51,038 nucleotides of DNA from a virus (lineage: Duplodnaviria; Heunggongvirae; Uroviricota; Caudoviricetes): positions 1 to 51,038 of the IMG/VR virus record IMGVR_UViG_2778261009_000008; one strand, written 5' to 3'. Positions within the stretch are counted from its first letter, which is position 1; the number at the start of each line of letters is the position of its first letter. The notes below the pieces were generated by a model. It searched no databases. It was not told the origin of the DNA and was given only the letters and a program-made list of their open reading frames with translations. Made by a program: the position numbers and the translations under genes. This document shows positions 6,466 through 22,651 of this stretch, one piece after another.

Positions 6466-6487
6466 AAGCACGGTGTTCGGGGGGGTT

Positions 6488-7456
6488 ATGAGCAGCAAGC
6501 TTCATGGTCTTGTCTGGGAAGGGTGCGCCTTCACCGGCATGATCTTATCCAGGGTGGCGGTTATGGCCCGTCTTGCAGACTACAGCAATGACGAGGGCGT
6601 GTCATGGCCTGCCATTGAAACTATCCGGCGTCAGATCGGTGCAAGAAGTGAATCCACCGTTAAATCTGCTATTGCAGAACTGGCGAAAGAGGGCTGGCTG
6701 ACGAAGGAAGAGCGTAAGGTCGGTGGGCGTAACGTAAGCAATATCTATCGGCTTAATGTGGAAAAACTCGAAGCAGCTGCAACTGCGGCGCGTGAGGCAT
6801 ATAAACCGAAAAGAAAAATTAGCCCGGCAAAAAATGACCCGTTAACAGTTAACCCGTCAAATATTGCCCCCTCAACGGTTGACCCGTCAAATGTTGATGG
6901 ATCAACGGTTGATAAAAAACTGCGTATTAGGGGGGCGATGATTGACCCCGATCCGTCAGTATTAAAACCTGATCCGTCAGATAAAAGATCTTCTTGTCCG
7001 GACGTTTCACTGCCGGACGAAAAACGATCATCACCAGTTGAGCGATTTCTGGAGAAACACCCAGATGCGCATACCTGGAATGTACCGAAGCGACAGTGGG
7101 GTACCCGTGAGGATGTCGCCTGTGCGCAGTGGATTTGGGGACGGGTTGTGGCGTTGTATGAACAGGCCGCCAGTGATGATGGTGAGGTGTCACGCCCCAG
7201 AGAACCTAACTGGACGACCTGGGCGAATGATGTGCGCATGATGCGTATGCTGGATGGACGTAGTCACCGGCAGATTTGTGAAATGTTTGGGCGTGTCCAG
7301 CGGGATTCGTTCTGGGTAAAAAACATCATGAGTCCGGCAAAACTCAGGGAAAAATGGGATGAACTGGTTATCCGCCTGGGGCGTTCGCCCGCGCAGCGTT
7401 GCGTAAATCACATTTCTGAACCGGACACTGAAATACCGCCGGGATTCAGGGGGTGA
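6488..7456 (+). CDS. Replication initiation protein (lambda O-like)
   Basis: About 322 aa; N-terminal winged-helix-like domain, central repeat-encoding linker containing DNA iterons, C-terminal domain; followed by a DnaC-like gene. Confidence 0.75.
   Translation: MSSKLHGLVWEGCAFTGMILSRVAVMARLADYSNDEGVSWPAIETIRRQIGARSESTVKSAIAELAKEGWLTKEERKVGGRNVSNIYRLNVEKLEAAATAAREAYKPKRKISPAKNDPLTVNPSNIAPSTVDPSNVDGSTVDKKLRIRGAMIDPDPSVLKPDPSDKRSSCPDVSLPDEKRSSPVERFLEKHPDAHTWNVPKRQWGTREDVACAQWIWGRVVALYEQAASDDGEVSRPREPNWTTWANDVRMMRMLDGRSHRQICEMFGRVQRDSFWVKNIMSPAKLREKWDELVIRLGRSPAQRCVNHISEPDTEIPPGFRG
6836..6995. repeat. Iteron-like direct repeats inside the O-like gene followed by an A/T-rich tract (candidate replication origin)
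   Basis: CCCGTCAAAT(A/G)TTG x2, TCAACGGTTGA x2, CCCGTTAACAGTTAA, then GATAAAAAACTGCGTATTA and GATCCGTCAG x2; mirrors the lambda arrangement of ori within O. Confidence 0.5.
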
Positions 7457-15407: not shown

Positions 15408-15767
15408 ATGCTCATAGATTTGGTTTTACCTTACCCGCCAACGGTGAACACCTACTGGCGTCGTCGTGGCAGCACATATTTTATCTCGGAGGAGGGAAAG
15501 CGCTATCGCCGTGCTGTGGCGCTTATTGTTAACCAGCAGCGGCTGAAATTAAGCCTGTCCGGAAGGCTGGTAATCAGGATTATTGCAGAGCCACCGGATA
15601 AGCGCCGCCGTGACCTGGACAATATTCTGAAAGCGCCGCTGGATGCGCTTACGCATGCGGGGTTGTTAATGGACGATGAGCAGTTTGATGAAATCAATAT
15701 TGTGCGTGGCCTGCCTGTTCCTGGCGGGCGGCTGGGGATAAAAATCACAGAACTGGAGTGCGCATGA
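15408..15767 (+). CDS. rusA: Holliday junction resolvase RusA
   Basis: 119 aa; aligns with E. coli RusA including the catalytic block RRRDLDN…DAL…G…DD. Confidence 0.85.
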   Translation: MLIDLVLPYPPTVNTYWRRRGSTYFISEEGKRYRRAVALIVNQQRLKLSLSGRLVIRIIAEPPDKRRRDLDNILKAPLDALTHAGLLMDDEQFDEINIVRGLPVPGGRLGIKITELECA

Positions 15768-16447
15768 ATAACCAGTATTTACAGTTTGTTCGTGAGCAAC
15801 TCATGATTGCCACTGCGGATCTCAGTGGGGCGACAAAAGGCCAGCTGGAAGCCTGGCAGGAGAATGCCCTGTTCGATACAGGGCGTTACAGACGCAAAAA
15901 AATTCGTTATCGCGATGAGGTAACCGGAAAAATGATCACGCGGGATAATCCACCGATCCCGGGTAAACAATCACTGGCGAAAGGCTCATCAATTGCGCTG
16001 GTCAGTCCGGTTGAGTTTGCAACATCATCGTGGCGGCGTGCCGTTCTGGAACTGGAAGAACATCAGAAGGCGTGGTTACTGTGGTGCTACAGTGGAAATG
16101 TTTGCTGGGAAGATCAGGTCACTATAACACAATGGGTATGGGGTGAGTTTAAAGCTCAGGCTGGTACCAGAAAAATTGCAGGGAAAACGCTGGATCGTCT
16201 GAAGAAACTGATTTGGCTGGCGGCACAGGATGTGAAGAGTGAGCTGGCAGGGCGTGAGACCTATGAACATCAGGAGTTAGCGGTGTTCATAGGAGTTGCT
16301 AAATCTACATGGACAAAAACACACAGGCCTCACTGGTTGGCTATGCGGGGTAGTGCAGAGATGCTGGACAGGGATGCTCTTATTTCAGTAATGCGGGTAC
16401 GTTCACGGCAAAAGTCGCTTAATTTAGAACCATATCTTGCAAAATAG
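15758..16447 (+). CDS. Q-like late antiterminator (putative)
   Basis: 229 aa ORF directly after rusA, followed by a TATAAT hexamer and two intrinsic terminators; assignment rests on position, not on recognised similarity. Confidence 0.5.
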   Translation: MRMNNQYLQFVREQLMIATADLSGATKGQLEAWQENALFDTGRYRRKKIRYRDEVTGKMITRDNPPIPGKQSLAKGSSIALVSPVEFATSSWRRAVLELEEHQKAWLLWCYSGNVCWEDQVTITQWVWGEFKAQAGTRKIAGKTLDRLKKLIWLAAQDVKSELAGRETYEHQELAVFIGVAKSTWTKTHRPHWLAMRGSAEMLDRDALISVMRVRSRQKSLNLEPYLAK

Positions 16448-16516
16448 AACTGAAGAGCATATATTCCGTGTAAATCTGATATTTTGCAGATTTTGTACGC
16501 GATGGCAAAGTAAGCA

Positions 16517-16543
16517 AACCCCGCCGCCGAGCGGGTTTTTTGT
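16517..16543 (+). terminator. Intrinsic terminator downstream of the Q-like gene
   Basis: GC-rich hairpin CCCGC-CGCCGA-GCGGG followed by TTTTTTG. Confidence 0.6.
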
Positions 16544-16562
16544 TGGCTTAACAGGTTATAAT
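16530..16562 (+). promoter_or_regulatory. Candidate late promoter (pR'-like) with consensus -10 TATAAT
   Basis: Perfect TATAAT at 16556-16561 with a weak -35 (TTGTTG) about 17 bp upstream; the upstream edge overlaps the T-run of the preceding terminator. Confidence 0.35.
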
Positions 16563-16743
16563 GTACAGTGCGAAACTGCCTGTTCAGCAGAATCATAGAG
16601 TGTTGACTGATACTGTCGCTGTACCCTGATGGGACTTGTGAGACTTCCGAACTGGAAGCCAGGAGTAGCAATAAGGTGATGACAAGCCTGCTGCCCTGTG
16701 TAAAAGGCACCTTAATGGTGCCTTTGTCGTTTTTATCAAAAGA

Positions 16744-16768
16744 TCCCCGCCACTGGCGGGTTTTTTAT
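16744..16768 (+). terminator. Intrinsic terminator (tR'-like)
   Basis: Hairpin CCCGCC-ACTG-GCGGG followed by TTTTTTA, about 190 nt downstream of the TATAAT. Confidence 0.6.
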
Positions 16769-17237: not shown

Positions 17238-18296
17238 ATGCTTAATACTGTAAAAATATCCAGTTGTGAGTTAATCAACGCTGACTGCCTGGAATTTATC
17301 CGGTCGTTACCCGAAAATTCTGTTGATCTGATAGTCACGGACCCGCCGTACTTTAAAGTGAAGCCTGAGGGCTGGGATAACCAGTGGAAGGGCGACGATG
17401 ATTACCTGAAGTGGCTGGACCAGTGTCTTGCGCAGTTCTGGCGGGTGCTGAAACCTGCCGGAAGTCTTTACCTGTTCTGTGGCCATCGCCTGGCATCTGA
17501 TATCGAAATCATGATGCGTGAACACTTCAGTGTGCTGAACCATATTATCTGGGCAAAGCCGTCCGGACGCTGGAACGGGTGCAACAAGGAAAGCCTGAGG
17601 GCGTATTTCCCCGCCACAGAGCGCATTCTGTTCGCGGAACATTATCAGGGGCCGTATCGCCCGAAAGATGCCGGGTATGAGGCGAAGGGCAGGGCACTGA
17701 AACAGCATGTGATGGCCCCGCTGATTTCTTACTTTCGTGATGCGCGTGCTGCCCTGGGGATAACGGCAAAACAGATAGTGGATGCCACAGGAAAGAAAAA
17801 CATGGTGTCGCACTGGTTCAGTGCCAGCCAGTGGCAGTTACCGGACGAAAGCGATTATCTGAAATTACAGGCGCTGTTTGCCCGGGTGGCAGAAGAGAAG
17901 CATCAGCGCGGAGAACTGGAAAAGCCACATCACCAACTGGTCAGCACATACAGTGAACTGAACCGGCAGTATACGGAACTGCAGAGTGAATATAAGCATC
18001 TGCGGCGGTATTTCGGTGTGACGGTGCGGGTGCCGTACACCGATGTGTGGACGCATAAACCGGTGCAGTACTATCCCGGGAAACATCCGTGCGAAAAACC
18101 GGCAGAAATGCTGCAGCAGATAATCAGTGCGAGCAGTCGTCCGGGTGACCTAGTTGCAGATTTCTTCATGGGGTCGGGTTCGACAGTCAAAGCAGCGATG
18201 GTGTTGGGGCGTCGTGCTACAGGCGTTGAGCTGGAGACTGAACGTTTTGAGCAGACGGTCAGGGAAGTTCAGGATTTAGCCAGCCAGAACGGATGA
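17238..18296 (+). CDS. DNA methyltransferase (N6-adenine/N4-cytosine class, DPPY motif), orphan
   Basis: 352 aa; catalytic motif IVTDPPYF; no adjacent restriction endonuclease gene visible. Confidence 0.85.
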   Translation: MLNTVKISSCELINADCLEFIRSLPENSVDLIVTDPPYFKVKPEGWDNQWKGDDDYLKWLDQCLAQFWRVLKPAGSLYLFCGHRLASDIEIMMREHFSVLNHIIWAKPSGRWNGCNKESLRAYFPATERILFAEHYQGPYRPKDAGYEAKGRALKQHVMAPLISYFRDARAALGITAKQIVDATGKKNMVSHWFSASQWQLPDESDYLKLQALFARVAEEKHQRGELEKPHHQLVSTYSELNRQYTELQSEYKHLRRYFGVTVRVPYTDVWTHKPVQYYPGKHPCEKPAEMLQQIISASSRPGDLVADFFMGSGSTVKAAMVLGRRATGVELETERFEQTVREVQDLASQNG

Positions 18297-18336: not shown

Positions 18337-18412
18337 GGCCCTTTAGCTCAGTGGTGAGAGCGAGCGACTCATAATCGCCAGGTCGCTGGTTCAAATCCAG
18401 CAAGGGCCACCA
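18337..18412 (+). tRNA. tRNA with anticodon CAT (Met, or Ile2 if lysidine-modified)
   Basis: Hand-folded cloverleaf: acceptor GGCCCTT/AAGGGCC, D-arm GCTC…GAGC, anticodon loop CTCATAA, T-arm GCTGG-TTCAAAT-CCAGC, encoded CCA. Confidence 0.85.
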
Positions 18413-18421
18413 TATCACATA

Positions 18422-18498
18422 CCGCCATTAGCTCATCGGGATAGAGCGCCAGCCTTCGGAGCTGGCTGCGCGGGGTTCGAGTCCTCGATGGCGGTCCA
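18422..18498 (+). tRNA. tRNA-Arg (anticodon TCG)
   Basis: Hand-folded cloverleaf: acceptor CCGCCAT/ATGGCGG, anticodon stem CCAGC/GCTGG with loop CTTCGGA (U33, G37), T-loop TTCGAGT, encoded CCA. Confidence 0.8.
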
Positions 18499-18776: not shown

Positions 18777-19205
18777 ATGTATTGCCGTGCTGTACCGGTT
18801 CTTGTTTTGATATTAGCCAGTCTGACAACTGGCTGCACAAAAGATGTATCGACAAATAATTATGATGCTTCGCTGCATCACTCAGATAAATTAATAAAGT
18901 CGCAAAATTTGAGCTTATCGGAACGTACCCCTGATGCCAGTGAAGAAATCCGGCAGTATGCCATTCAGGTCAGGGAAGCCATAGAAGAACAGTTAAAGGA
19001 TGCGGGTAAGTATTCAGGAAAAGAGTGTTCACTGAGAATGTATATGGCCCCGAATGGTCTTCTGCTACAGGTTAAAAGAGAAAGCGGTGATCCCGATTTA
19101 TGTCGTGAAGCGATGAATGCAGTAAAGAATGCTGATATACCATCACCACCGTCTTCAGGAGTATATAAAGCATTTAGAAATGGCGTGCTGGATTTTAAAC
19201 TCTGA
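18777..19205 (+). CDS. Lipoprotein with TolA C-terminal domain (domain III)-like fold
   Basis: 142 aa; signal peptide plus lipobox-like LTTGC; C-terminal about 90 aa align with E. coli TolA domain III (…YSGKECSLRMYMAPNGLLLQVKRESGDPDLCREAMNAVKNADIPSPPSSGVYKAFRNGVLDFK…). Confidence 0.7.
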   Translation: MYCRAVPVLVLILASLTTGCTKDVSTNNYDASLHHSDKLIKSQNLSLSERTPDASEEIRQYAIQVREAIEEQLKDAGKYSGKECSLRMYMAPNGLLLQVKRESGDPDLCREAMNAVKNADIPSPPSSGVYKAFRNGVLDFKL

Positions 19206-19261
19206 CTGGGGGAGAAGATTTTCTCCTGTCCAGATGATTTTGGGGTGCTGGAAAGATATTG

Positions 19262-20640
19262 TGCTGTGAAGTGTTAAATTCCTCACAATTCAGTAAGTTG
19301 ACAGTTGCCTGTCAGACTGGGCATTTGTTAAAAAAATTTCGCATGGTGAATCCCCCTGTGCGGAGGGGCGACTGGTGAACGGTATGATCTCTTTGATGAT
19401 CGTAAGCGAGAATACGCGGGTTTAGTGTCACCGGGCTGAACTCACCGGGAGGCACCCGGCACCATGCTCATGGTGATACAGAAATGCGGCTTCAGCCCCT
19501 CTCTGGAGGGGCTTTCTTATGGACAAAAAAGCCCGCGCTGGGAGACGCGGGCGGCAAGGAATAAACAATAAAACGTGAAGTAATATTTCAGCTGGCGAAT
19601 AATACCCCATAGTAATCACTCTGCGCAACTGCGCGGCCTTTTTCGAATTGCGGGCTGTAGTCTCCCTTCTGCCGGGTGGCCTGGTTGCAGATTTCTTCAT
19701 GGGGTAGGGTTCGGCAGTTAAAGCAGCGATGGCGCTGGGGCGTCGTGCTATAGGCGTTGAGCTGGATACCGGGCGTTTTGAACAGACTGCGCAGGCAATC
19801 AGGGATATATTTATCGGTAGCTGTTTGCAGAAGTAATCTCCCAAAATTCCATTTTTGGAATGCAGTGGTTGTTGCTGTAGTGTGGGCAAGTTCTGGAACT
19901 GGCTTCGTCCATTGCAGATGATTGTTAGCTGGATATCAGTTACCTCATGGAAATGTTAAATGACTCACAGTTCGGTTGATGGACTATTGTCTGATTGATG
20001 GAAGTCTTGTAAAAACGAGCCAGCATAGTGAATCCCCCTGTGCGGAGGGGCGTCTGACATGGTCTCCATAGCGATGGTCACAATACGCAGATTCAGTAGT
20101 CAGGCTGAATCTACCGGGAGGCACCCGGCACTATGCTGCTTATGGTGTATACACAGCGATCGGCCCCTCTCCTGAGGGGCTTTTTTTGTGCGGGAAAAGG
20201 CTGTGTTGTGAAATGTTAAATTCCTCACAATTCATGAGGTTGATGATTGTCTGATTGATGAGGAGTTTGTTAAAAAAAGCGGGCATGGTGAATCCCCCTG
20301 TGCGGAGGGGTGATATCGTATCATTTCCTGTGTGGTCGACTGATATCACGGACATTTGTTCACCGGGAGGCACCCGGCACCATGTAGTATACAGAGATTA
20401 GGCATACATCCAGGCTCCTCATTGCAGGAGCCTTTTTACATGCAAAAAAAACCGCTCCAGGGAAGAGCGGTTGGCAAGGAATAAATAACAAAACGTGAAG
20501 TAATTTATTCAGCGCCCTAATAATACCTTACAGTAATCACATTGCGCAACTGTATGTAAGGGCGTATTTCTTTTTTGCGGGCTGTTTTGTGTGACTTTTG
20601 TGTTTCCGGAGGTCAGCCCGTGCCTTCTCTGACTCAGAAC
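19262..20640. repeat. Triplicated non-coding module (conserved blocks A-B-C plus hairpin, three tandem paralogous copies)
   Basis: Block A (GAAATGTTAAATTCCTCACAATTCA) at about 19270/19949/20210; block B (GTGAATCCCCCTGTGCGGAGGGG) at 19347/20028/20287; block C (CACCGGGAGGCACCCGGCACCATG) at 19443/20112/20361; each followed by a GC hairpin (T-run clear only in copy 2); an about 80-bp block D at 19554 and 20473. Confidence 0.6.
19681..19835 (+). pseudogene. Duplicated 3' fragment of the DNA methyltransferase gene
   Basis: About 125 bp near-identical to 18156-18290 (the C-terminal 47 codons of the 17238-18296 gene) with a TCG to TAG change; no start or upstream gene body. Confidence 0.7.
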
Positions 20641-20662
20641 ATTATTCCGGCCGGGAGGATTC

Positions 20663-22651
20663 ATGGCATTTAAACACTACGATGTGGTCAGGGCGGCATC
20701 GCCGTCAGACCTTGCTGAACGACTGACACAAAAACTGAAGGAGGGGTGGCAGCCATTTGGCAGCCCTGTCGCCATCACGCCTTATACCCTGATGCAGGCT
20801 ATTGCGGCGGAAGGTGATGTCACCACGCCGGTGCTGGTTAAACCATCGGGTGACGGGGAGACGGCTATCAGCAAGACCGGTGAGCCTGAATATTATTATG
20901 TTGTCGCGCTGGCGGGTCAGTCAAATGGTATGTCTTTTGGAGAGGGAGTACCGTTACCTGATTCTTATGATCGCCCTGATCCGAGAATTAAGCAGCTTGC
21001 CCGTCGACGTACCGTTACGCCGCGAGGCGTTCCCTGCACCTATAACGATGTTATTCCGGCAGATCATTGTCTTCATGATGTGATGGATATGAGTGAAAAA
21101 AATCACCCCCGGGCAGACCTCAATAAAGGTCAGTATGGTTGTGTGGGTCAGGGACTGCATATTGCCAAAAAACTGTTACCGTTTATACCGGCGAATGCGG
21201 GCATTCTTCTGGTTCCATGCTGTCGTGGAGGCTCGGGAGTGACTACAGGTAATGAGGGAACATTTAACGCCTCTTCCGGGGCAAGCCCTGATTCTGCATT
21301 GTGGGGAGCTGATAAGCCGCTGTACCAGGATCTGTTAAGTCGCACGAAAGTCGCGCTGGCTAAAAATCCCGGAAATATCCTGCTGGCGGTAATCTGGATG
21401 CAGGGGGAGAGTGATCTGGCTTCAGGAAGCCAGAGTCATAATGCTCTTTTTACTGGCATGGTACAGAAATTCCGTGCTGACATCGCTGATATGTCAGGGC
21501 AGTGCGTGGGGGGCTCGGCACTGAGCGTTCCGTGGGTTTGTGGCGATACGACGCATTACTGGAAAGAAAAATATGCTGCGTCTTATGAAACTGTATACGG
21601 TGGATATAAAAATAAGGCAGCGCAGAATATTCACTTTGTCCCTTTCATGGTTGATGGAAGCGGGGTAAATGTGCAGACCAATAATCCGGCAGAAGATCCT
21701 GATATTGAAGGTATTGGCTACTCCGGTTCGAAGTGGCGAGACAGTTCTGTCAGCTGGACGTCAGGTGACAGGGCAAGCCATTTCGGTTCATGGGCGCGGC
21801 GTGGAATTATTTCAGATCGTCTTGCAACCGCAATTCTGACCCACGCAGGCAAATACCCGGCGTTTATCACCGGGCGGTCAGAAACGGTAGTTGCAGGAGA
21901 TGAACGGGAAAACGTTACATCCGGAGATTTCCCGTCACCTGTGGAGGATGCTGCGTTATCACAGGATGCACCTCAGAGAAGAACGGTTGTTGAGTATAAT
22001 TCAGCTGTTGAGAAAGACAGCCTCGGTGGTAACTGGGCAGCCCAGCACTGGAATGCCCGGGACGGTGTCGCCGAGTTTGTTAATGATGAAAGCAGACAGG
22101 TGCTGAAGATTAAGCAGCATGAGGGCAAACAGGGACCGTGGATGCTGTCAGCAGGAGTATCAGCTGAAGATGCCCGTGCTCTGTATGAAAATGGCGGTGA
22201 AATAAAACTTGAATTCAGGTTGCCGGATGGTACCCAGGTTGCAGATAACAAATACCTCTTTGGTGTTTACCTGCCAGTTTCCGGGTGGACTCAGGAAGGC
22301 AACAGCAGCAATATGATGGCCTCCTTTTTCACTCAGACAAAAGCCAGTAACCTGGATGTCATGTATCACGGTAAAACACAGCCTAATACAAAAATTGAGT
22401 CATTCGGTGCGGTTAATAACAACTGGCACACGCTTGTCTTTAAATATAAAGGAGGCGGCAATCACCAGGTTATTCCGGTACTTGACGGAGAAGAGAAAAC
22501 AGGTTTTGCACTGAAAGAAGGTCCGGTCACTTCTGCCTTTACGGTGGATAACATCACAGTGACAGGTATCAGCGCAAATCAGGGAAAATCTTATCCTGTC
22601 ATGTTCCGCAGTATCATGGTAAGCATTAACCAGGCAACCTCTTCATCATAA
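20663..22651 (+). CDS. Sialate O-acetylesterase, NanS-p-like (DUF1737 + SGNH esterase)
   Basis: 662 aa; N-terminus MAFKHYDVVRAAS… and esterase block YYVVALAGQSNGM; matches the prophage nanS-p gene that follows stxAB in Stx phages. Confidence 0.8.
   Translation: MAFKHYDVVRAASPSDLAERLTQKLKEGWQPFGSPVAITPYTLMQAIAAEGDVTTPVLVKPSGDGETAISKTGEPEYYYVVALAGQSNGMSFGEGVPLPDSYDRPDPRIKQLARRRTVTPRGVPCTYNDVIPADHCLHDVMDMSEKNHPRADLNKGQYGCVGQGLHIAKKLLPFIPANAGILLVPCCRGGSGVTTGNEGTFNASSGASPDSALWGADKPLYQDLLSRTKVALAKNPGNILLAVIWMQGESDLASGSQSHNALFTGMVQKFRADIADMSGQCVGGSALSVPWVCGDTTHYWKEKYAASYETVYGGYKNKAAQNIHFVPFMVDGSGVNVQTNNPAEDPDIEGIGYSGSKWRDSSVSWTSGDRASHFGSWARRGIISDRLATAILTHAGKYPAFITGRSETVVAGDERENVTSGDFPSPVEDAALSQDAPQRRTVVEYNSAVEKDSLGGNWAAQHWNARDGVAEFVNDESRQVLKIKQHEGKQGPWMLSAGVSAEDARALYENGGEIKLEFRLPDGTQVADNKYLFGVYLPVSGWTQEGNSSNMMASFFTQTKASNLDVMYHGKTQPNTKIESFGAVNNNWHTLVFKYKGGGNHQVIPVLDGEEKTGFALKEGPVTSAFTVDNITVTGISANQGKSYPVMFRSIMVSINQATSSS

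Follow-up and report, generated by a model that had tools for sequence, protein, structure and literature searches.

We describe here an interval of 1.4 kb within a 51,038-nucleotide (nt) stretch of viral DNA (the window; positions 1 to 51,038 of IMG/VR record IMGVR_UViG_2778261009_000008, class Caudoviricetes). Between positions 19262 and 20640, the window holds five small RNA (sRNA) genes and a remnant of a DNA methylase gene. Three of the sRNA genes (units 1–3) lie in tandem on the plus strand and are members of the STnc100 family, of the EcOnc27/sRNA103 type and related to PasD. The other two lie on the minus strand, belong to the EcOnc08/21/42 family, and converge with units 1 and 3. The interval is an sRNA gene cluster in the moron site of a lambdoid Escherichia coli prophage, between a Q-dependent late promoter and the nanS-p and lysis genes (Table 1). 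An earlier reading made from the letters alone (the sequence-only reading) had described a triplicated module over the same positions; the module stands, but the two minus-strand modules and the methyltransferase remnant had not been separated out from it.

Three tandem units of the STnc100 family

The three units share sequence blocks. Block B (GTGAATCCCCCTGTGCGGAGGGG) is present in exact copies at 19346, 20028, and 20288, all on the plus strand and the only three in the window, and dinucleotide shuffles of the window gave no match. For block C, the copies at 19443 and 20361 are exact and that at 20112 has two mismatches; block A is exact at 20210, with one mismatch at 19268 and four at 19950 (the last read from the alignment). 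A repeat search returned the same organization as a 112-nt family of three copies with 66–80% identity and spacings of 682 and 260 nt. The paralogous, block-sharing units proposed by the sequence-only reading are thereby confirmed, with B and C each found three times in the window where chance expects none. Identity among the units is unevenly spread, at 92–100% in the scaffold, 48–64% in the core, and 46–73% in the linker. Terminator-like sites number 12 in the array region against 2.3 ± 1.6 expected, and a hairpin with a T-run ends all three units (stems in Table 1), not copy 2 alone as had been thought; the unit length once put at roughly 200–350 bp comes down to gene-sized units of about 160–240 nt.

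An Rfam scan of the whole window places the STnc100 model (RF02076, gathering score 47 bits) on unit 1 at 19312-19524 with 172.3 bits, on unit 2 at 19994-20189 with 120.8 bits, and on unit 3 at 20254-20443 with 139.0 bits. All three cover model positions 1–206 and are full-length members of the family. The sequence-only reading, which had suggested such a scan, had taken the units for a tandem family of structured sRNA genes, and these three matches of 121–172 bits support it. It was right about the kind of gene and missed that the family is already described, that blocks B and C pair with each other, and that two antisense genes converge on the units.

Alternatively, the blocks could be pieces left from a known gene, for example tRNA 3′ ends or remnants of an att site or a toxin gene. 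Block B (..GTGAATCCCCC TGTGCGG A..) superficially resembles a T-arm plus acceptor 3′ strand, and phage tRNA genes lie about 850 bp upstream. However, ARAGORN finds tRNAs at 18337-18498 only and none in the interval, a permissive Rfam scan of 19100-20800 at E ≤ 1 has no tRNA (RF00005) match, and homologues downstream of stx genes fall outside the toxin open reading frames (ORFs). The blocks align in full to the STnc100 model. A tRNA or att-remnant origin of block B is rejected on the ARAGORN and Rfam results, the tRNA or toxin-gene fragments that the sequence-only reading had allowed for did not turn up, and we give this explanation almost no weight.

RNA fold and covariation

In the Rfam model structure, a helix between GCAUGGUG, at the block B start, and CACCAUGC, at the block C end, closes a multi-branch fold. 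Inside the fold, hairpin B (CCCCU/GUGCGG/AGGGG) is followed by the variable core and then by hairpin C (CCGGG/AGGCA/CCCGG), with a variable, single-stranded linker and the terminator coming after. The closing helix is GCATGGTG/CACCATGC in units 1 and 3 and GCATAGTG/CACTATGC in unit 2, and this difference is a compensatory G-C to A-U change (GCAUAGUG with CACUAUGC). Minimum free energy folds of units 2 and 3 reproduce the family architecture, with z-scores of −2.2 to −2.6 (−2.49 for unit 2 and −2.21 for unit 3).

The covariation analysis that had been proposed along with the sequence-only reading was made on 41 non-redundant homologues, the three units included, and finds compensatory changes in the helices. 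In this set, 92.7% of cells pair, compared with 40–52% when the 3′ partner is slid; both sides have changed in 19 of 34 pairs, and none of 500 shuffles reaches the observed values. Compensatory change affects six of the eight pairs of the closing helix. The consensus structure of STnc100 is thus kept by compensatory change, with unit 3 lacking hairpin S1. Hairpins B and C, by contrast, are invariant in the 41 diverse homologues, stems included, and show zero covariation, which suggests sequence-specific recognition by some partner rather than mere structure.

A further pairing lies within the core. Directly 3′ of hairpin B, a segment of 6–7 nt (X) is complementary to the loop (X′) of the core's last hairpin, and the two segments co-vary across core classes: CUGGUGA/UCACCGG, CUGGUGU/ACACCAG, AUCAGC/GCUGAU, CCAGUC/GACUGG, ACUGGC/GCCAGU, CCAGUU/AACUGG, and AAUGAC/GUCAUU. 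The corresponding strands of unit 3, UGAUAUC/GAUAUCA, form a plain hairpin. A column-based count on the MAFFT alignment is unsuited to this pairing because the register differs by 1–5 nt between core classes. The pairing was assessed with a register-free permutation test of own against cross-class partners, with one representative for each of 15 core classes, a first version of the control having been diluted by related cores. Cross-class partners equal or beat a strand's own partner in 1 of 20,000 permutations by helix score and in 28 of 20,000 by duplex energy. The X and X′ positions are unpaired in the Rfam structure line, and a pseudoknot is not mentioned in the preprint of Zhu et al. (2026). 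We regard this loop-to-strand pairing as a candidate pseudoknot. It would anchor the variable core to the scaffold in most members of the family. In unit 1, the X′ heptamer TCACCGG is also seen to recur at the 5′ edge of block C (19442-19448). In the CUGGUG core class, the S1 loop and the block C flank might thus be alternative partners of X, a possible structural switch.

The same comparison bears on whether the units encode small proteins, with translation beginning, for instance, at the ATG within GCATGGTG (MVNPPVRRG...) or at the one that follows block C. Several STnc100 copies of strain EDL933 have ribosomal coverage of 1.5–3.2 (PMC5331693), and an ATG opens frames of 11–68 amino acids in 30 of the 41 homologues. 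Against this, the frames are unconserved in length and sequence beyond the part dictated by the invariant block B, and the upstream start codon is missing in the other 11 homologues, among them unit 2, where it is ATA. The frames after the block C ATG are those that the sequence-only reading had listed, of 35, 28, and 1 amino acid in the three units (the last an immediate stop), and its argument against protein coding holds. The substitutions are compensatory for RNA pairing, not synonymous. Coding was rejected for want of a conserved frame, and we consider small proteins a most improbable product of these units.

Convergent genes on the minus strand

The two minus-strand modules (19525-19631 and 20445-20552) are 78–80% identical to each other, with a mean column identity of 82%. 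Both have a conserved TTGCGC-N18-TATTAT element, an invariant CCUUGCC, and a GC hairpin with a U-run. Antisense gene 1 is 94% identical over 134 nt to strain Sakai prophage Sp4 at about 1179937-1180070, the coordinates of EcOnc08/EcOnc21; its identity to EcOnc42, the Sp15 region located downstream of stx1B, is 93%. Antisense gene 2 is 80% and 79% identical to the Sp4 and Sp15 copies, respectively. The homologue in enteropathogenic E. coli (EPEC), E2348C_1409.E2348C_1408.IGR, is a 182-nt sRNA candidate from the sequencing of ligated, interacting RNAs (RIL-seq); cfa and tir are among its partners, and the motif of its targets is GGCA(A/G)GG (PMC8550237). CCUUGCC is the complement of this motif and is conserved in both antisense genes, directly upstream of the intrinsic terminator and in convergent orientation with the sense unit.

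The length of these transcripts is less clear-cut. In Sakai, the EcOnc08/21 transcript is ~271 nt (PMC4104026 Table S2), and for the genes described here, forms of ~68 nt (short) and ~190 nt (long) both appear possible from the letters. Upstream of antisense gene 2, a minus-strand promoter-like ATGCCA-N17-AATAAT (20669-20641) overlaps the start codon of nanS-p (gene start 20663). A longer form of antisense gene 2 could start near 20634; at ~190 nt, it would be close to the 182 nt of the EPEC candidate and antisense to the 5′ untranslated region of nanS-p.

Other identities for the minus-strand modules were considered and rejected. There is no Rfam match to AgvB or AsxR at the gathering score or at E ≤ 1, whereas the same search finds both in the Sakai loci. 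A match to OmrA-B at 19524-19612, with 21.8 bits (E = 0.3) where the gathering score is 40, was put down to chance. In Sp10, HnrS (EcOnc10-12) maps to a site about 5 kb away. The complement of what we take to be the mazF 3′ sequence is not in the minus-strand modules.

Predicted starts of the plus-strand RNAs

The mapped 5′ end of PasD2 is the G of GCATGGTG, 7–8 nt after TTGACT-N18-TAAAAA (PMC8550237). Each of the three units has TTGCCT or TTGTCT, a spacer of 17 or 18 nt, TAAAAA, a further 6 or 7 nt, and then the G equivalent to the PasD2 start. At the same place, divergent family members have a canonical TTGACG-N17-TATATT. We describe these PasD-type elements as promoter-like, and RNAs starting at the PasD-type position are predicted to be 181, 167, and 157 nt long for units 1, 2, and 3, respectively.

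Genomic context

The 1.5 kb from 19200 to 20700 are 100% identical to the chromosome of E. coli JNEC-KY203. The RefSeq record of this identical genome, NZ_AP045179.1, has no noncoding RNA feature for any of the five sRNA genes and lists only the methylase pseudogene remnant. The remnant matches the 3′ end of ECs_1780, the methylase gene of Sakai Sp9, at 85% identity. The nanS-p-type esterase is the conserved phage ORF that bounds sRNA dyads downstream (Tree et al. 2014, PMC4104026), and convergent dyads of this kind are present at the lambdoid moron site of at least eight Sakai prophages, EcOnc27 being paired with AsxR (PMC4104026).

The sequence-only reading had placed the array where Shiga toxin (Stx) phages insert stxAB, and rightly so, as the element lies directly downstream of stx2B in Sakai Sp5 and of stx1B in Sp15. 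The comparison with enterobacterial prophages that it recommended finds an STnc100 element at the equivalent place in seven Sakai prophages (Sp4, Sp5, Sp9, Sp10, Sp11, Sp15, and Sp17). In four of these (Sp5, Sp9, Sp10, and Sp17), the element abuts a convergent gene of the AgvB/AsxR type.

Two observations concern the region upstream of the array. An StxS-like short RNA may be made from PR′ at 16437-16760; a BLAST comparison of the Q-to-methylase spacer with the Sakai StxS region found no similarity. The TolA-C ORF occupies the slot where Stx phages carry stxAB, and one may speculate that a phage-borne TolA-III domain could be a decoy against TolA-dependent phage or colicin entry.

Table 1. Features of the sRNA gene cluster and its surroundings (positions in the window)
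Feature	Position	Strand	Basis
Unit 1, STnc100-family sRNA gene	19268..19524	+	Rfam RF02076, terminator scan
Unit 1 block A	19268-19292	+	sequence
Unit 1 promoter-like TTGCCT-N18-TAAAAA	19305-19334	+
Unit 1 predicted short-form start	G19341	+	inferred from mapped PasD2 5′ end
Unit 1 closing helix	19341-19348 with 19460-19467	+
Unit 1 hairpin B	19353-19368	+
Unit 1 variable core	19369-19443	+
Unit 1 hairpin C	19445-19459	+
Unit 1 linker	19468-19493	+
Unit 1 terminator	19494-19513 plus T-run	+
Unit 1 candidate pseudoknot	19372..19434	+	X CTGGTGA 19372-19378 with X′ TCACCGG 19428-19434
Unit 1 hairpin S1, loop holds X′	19418-19425 with 19436-19443	+
Antisense sRNA gene 1 (EcOnc08/21/42 family), convergent with unit 1	19525..19631	−	homology to Sakai
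Antisense gene 1 promoter-like TTGCGC-N18-TATTAT	19599-19628 (plus-strand coordinates)	−
Antisense gene 1 seed-like CCUUGCC	19553-19559	−
Antisense gene 1 terminator stem	19531-19552 plus U-run	−
Unit 2, STnc100-family sRNA gene, without antisense partner	19950..20189	+	Rfam RF02076, fold, terminator scan
Unit 2 block A (4 mismatches)	19950-19974	+
Unit 2 promoter-like TTGTCT-N17-TAAAAA	19987-20015	+
Unit 2 predicted start	G20023	+
Unit 2 closing helix	GCATAGTG 20023-20030 with CACTATGC 20129-20136	+
Unit 2 hairpin B	20035-20050	+
Unit 2 core	20051-20112	+
Unit 2 hairpin C	20114-20128	+
Unit 2 X; X′	20052-20058; 20099-20105	+
Unit 2 terminator	20162-20181 plus TTTTTTT	+
Unit 3, STnc100-family sRNA gene	20210..20443	+	Rfam RF02076, fold, terminator scan
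Unit 3 block A	20210-20234	+
Unit 3 promoter-like TTGTCT-N18-TAAAAA	20247-20276	+
Unit 3 predicted start	G20283	+
Unit 3 closing helix	20283-20290 with 20378-20385	+
Unit 3 hairpin B	20295-20310	+
Unit 3 core	20311-20361	+
Unit 3 hairpin C	20363-20377	+
Unit 3 X with X′, plain hairpin; S1 absent	20311-20318 with 20341-20348	+
Unit 3 EcOnc27-like linker	20386-20411	+
Unit 3 terminator	20412-20433	+
Antisense sRNA gene 2 (EcOnc08/21/42 family), convergent with unit 3	20444..20552	−	homology to Sakai
Antisense gene 2 promoter-like element	20520-20549	−
Antisense gene 2 CCUUGCC	20473-20479	−
Antisense gene 2 terminator stem	20450-20472 plus U-run	−
Q antiterminator gene	15764-16447	+	Pfam PF06323, 2.5e-89; RefSeq
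Candidate late promoter PR′, TTGCAA-N17-TATATT	16437-16465	+	consensus scan; overlaps Q end
Strong terminators after PR′	16520-16535, 16746-16760	+
Small ORF between Q and DNA methylase			annotation
DNA methylase	17238-18296		annotation
tRNA-Ile(CAU)	18337-18412	+	RefSeq; ARAGORN calls CAU tRNA Met
tRNA-Arg(UCG)	18422-18498	+	ARAGORN, RefSeq
142-amino-acid TolA C-terminal-domain (TolA-C) ORF	18777-19205	+	Pfam PF06519, 3.4e-22; weak TonB_2
DNA methyltransferase 3′ remnant (pseudogene)	19672-19836	+	RefSeq of identical genome, locus 6473-6637
nanS-p-type sialate O-acetylesterase (DUF1737 + SASA + DUF6645)	20663-22651	+	Pfam, RefSeq
DUF1378, DUF826, holin, lysozyme	after nanS-p

Arrays and reassorting modules

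Arrays of such units recur. Other E. coli prophages have three direct tandem units, and an Stx1c phage has two, downstream of stx1cB. Among 119 IMG/VR loci found through block B, 19 have at least two units, and array size varies between loci from 1 to 5. The largest arrays seen, of five units, are on four contigs (L016-L019; for example L018, 5017-7874), in which one solo unit is followed ~2 kb downstream by four in direct tandem with a period of ~260 bp. Of 5,426 complete E. coli genomes, at least 101 contain a junction that runs from block C into the following block B, and nine have the exact three-unit arrangement.

When leader, core, and tail classes are compared across 175 units, every pairing of modules has four-gamete violations. 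We conclude from these violations that the three kinds of module reassort and that the invariant blocks are the junctions. The locus can be laid out as three concatenated moron-site cassettes: one with the methylase, the tRNAs, the TolA-C ORF, unit 1, and antisense gene 1; a second with the methylase remnant and unit 2; and a third with unit 3, antisense gene 2, and nanS-p. The methylase remnant marks a recombination join between two moron-site cassettes. The array itself appears to have been assembled by inter-prophage recombination with the invariant blocks as crossover points.

It could be argued that this history is all there is, with the conserved blocks being DNA-level patches of homology that serve only as crossover points and the repeats being recombination scars without RNA function. 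The methylase-gene remnant between units 1 and 2, the occurrence of leader, core, and tail classes in all four combinations, and the variable array size would each fit such a view. Yet four helices are maintained by compensatory base changes, promoters and terminators are retained in every copy, and the orthologous RNAs are abundant and Hfq-bound, whereas neutral scars would decay. We consider a locus of scars alone very unlikely. Recombination scars had been the alternative offered by the sequence-only reading; they hold as history, given the remnant and the reassortment, but not as a replacement for the RNA reading, given the compensatory changes.

Function of the cluster

Relatives of the units are known as RNAs. 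EcOnc27 is bound by Hfq in cross-linking and analysis of cDNA (Hfq-CRAC) and gives northern bands of ~235/247 nt, the 247-nt form being destabilised without Hfq; EcOnc05 and EcOnc08/21 give northern bands too (PMC4104026 Table S2). In EDL933, all 11 STnc100 copies have transcriptome reads, and STnc100_4 was confirmed by northern blot (PMC5331693). STnc100 was also detected in outer-membrane vesicles of Shiga toxin-producing E. coli (PMC12370729). PasD1 and PasD2 of EPEC, of about 172 nt, are Hfq-dependent RIL-seq hubs with northern, RNA-seq, and RIL-seq evidence (PMC8550237).

We think it probable, with good confidence, that the cluster of STnc100-type and EcOnc08/21/42 sRNAs acts in trans. 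In the lysogen, each gene would be transcribed from its own σ70 promoter and stop at its own terminator, and the products would be Hfq-associated RNAs of roughly 160–240 nt. Their targets would be host and island mRNAs, regulated by base pairing with the variable linker, the core, or both. The linker may be the specificity region, as it is in PasD, whose UGUGAG seed is located there. The three copies would be non-redundant, and different targets are expected because the copies differ in both linker and core. During lytic growth, Q-modified polymerase would read through all of the terminators to the esterase and lysis genes.

Several points weigh against this picture. Detection comes from orthologues, so that expression of the window copies in this strain is inferred, and the seed location is extrapolated from PasD, which at 41 bits lies below the gathering threshold of STnc100. 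For STnc100 proper there is no directly validated target, only effects of overexpression on fimZ and espA (PMC7873438), and some EDL933 copies have appreciable ribosome footprints, with ribosomal coverage up to 3.2 (PMC5331693). A consensus promoter scan flagged none of the proposed plus-strand promoters, in which the −35 and −10 hexamers each match at four of six positions. The EcOnc27 band of ~235/247 nt exceeds the predicted 157–181 nt, and because it is longer than a PasD-type start would give, a second, upstream start near block A is likely. Block A has several weak −10-like hexamers (TAAATT, CACAAT), none of which is flagged by the consensus scan.

Block A has two other resemblances. CUCACA(A/G), present in block A of every unit (19282-19288, 19964-19970, and 20224-20230), is the RIL-seq target motif of the PasD seed UGUGAG (PMC8550237 supplement), and CACAAU is similar to CACAACA, the consensus of GcvB targets that AgvB carries. 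PasD-type sRNAs of other prophages could pair with the unit RNAs if block A is part of the transcript, as in a long EcOnc27-like isoform.

A different function would be in cis, with the units acting mainly on the phage late transcript as terminators or insulators, or as RNA stability or processing elements, through which nanS-p and the lysis genes would stay silent in a lysogen. On this view, the RNAs would be by-products, as the PR′-tR′ short RNA once seemed to be. Three plus-strand intrinsic terminators stand in series between PR′ and the lysis genes, the location within the Q-antiterminated unit is conserved across all prophages examined, and the reason for the dyad arrangement is stated in the literature to be unclear (PMC7873438). 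However, a terminator needs neither invariant hairpins B and C nor a covarying closing helix and internal pairing, each unit has its own promoter-like element at the mapped PasD start position, and the orthologues bind Hfq and form chimeras with many mRNAs. A mainly cis-acting role is, in our judgment, unlikely, and the cis and trans roles are mutually compatible.

We also offer a tentative and rather doubtful idea, namely that the STnc100/PasD scaffold is a modular display platform. The invariant hairpins would serve partner recognition, the pseudoknot would lock the hypervariable core, and a swappable seed tail would give specificity. Prophages would assemble arrays of up to five copies into custom multi-sRNA islands by recombining at the invariant blocks, and since block A has the PasD target motif CUCACAA, copies from different prophages might regulate each other.

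Significance

The observation is right but for the most part ordinary, since the sRNA family, its position, and its type of convergent partner are all known. Novelty is confined to the three-plus-two arrangement, unannotated in RefSeq, the recurrence of arrays, the candidate covarying pseudoknot, and module reassortment. Prophage sRNAs of this kind adjoin Shiga toxin genes in pathogenic E. coli, and in a machine-learning study, EcOnc27 single-nucleotide polymorphisms ranked among the top predictors of haemolytic uraemic syndrome (PMC12711010). For strain-to-strain virulence regulation and for annotation, it matters that one prophage can hold three differently armed copies and two antisense partners, that such arrays recur, and that RefSeq annotates none of these genes. 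The candidate pseudoknot, the invariant hairpins, and the reassorting modules are handles for mutagenesis and for finding the target-selecting part of the RNA.

Comparison with known systems

The closest relatives are EcOnc27/sRNA103 of enterohaemorrhagic E. coli O157:H7 and, with them, EcOnc05, EcOnc28, and probably EcOnc06, which have the same closing helix, hairpins B and C, and terminator as the units. Both the EcOnc27-type elements and the array lie between moron cargo and nanS-p, and in reverse complement, the EcOnc27 northern probe is a near match to the unit 3 linker. The closest Sakai relative of unit 1 is the copy downstream of stx1B (83% over 260 nt). The Sakai prophages examined have one unit each, whereas this prophage has three in tandem. 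The cargo upstream of the array is a TolA-C-domain ORF, not stx, and the cores and linkers are new combinations of module classes known from other loci.

The convergent arrangement also has precedents. In the dyads of Tree et al. (2014), a sense gene of the STnc100 type is abutted tail-to-tail by a minus-strand sRNA gene, as here, but the published cases have one dyad per prophage, whereas the window has two dyads and one solo sense gene. AgvB and AsxR (RF02702 and RF02703) occupy the same antisense slot, right after the STnc100 terminator, in Sp5, Sp9, Sp10, and Sp17. In general form they resemble the antisense genes described here, with a 5′ part that is short and variable, then TTGCC, a GC hairpin, and a U-run.

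PasD1 and PasD2 (EPEC E2348/69, EcOnc13 type) share with the units the scaffold logic, the promoter spacing, and a 5′ end at GCAUGGUG, and PasD lies upstream of a SASA esterase gene, the same position as that of the window units. PasD2 has an X:X′ pairing as well (AAUGAUC/GAUCAUU). PasD2 scores 41 bits on the STnc100 model, below its gathering score, and blocks B and C are altered in PasD. TGTGAG, which would encode the PasD seed UGUGAG, is not found on the plus strand of 19262-20640, and the units are not assigned to PasD. Zhu et al. (2026) propose in their preprint that PasD and STnc100 share ancestry, their PasD copies being distal and not tandem; the unit sequences were looked for in its supplement and not found.

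The analogy between the units and other sRNA paralogues extends to the core genome. OmrA/OmrB and PrrF1/PrrF2 are adjacent sRNA paralogues that arose as core-genome duplications with shared seeds. Both pairs, which are also cited by Zhu et al. (2026), combine a conserved with a divergent part, as the window units do. In contrast to those pairs, the copies described here look assembled by inter-prophage recombination, and their presumed targeting parts differ.

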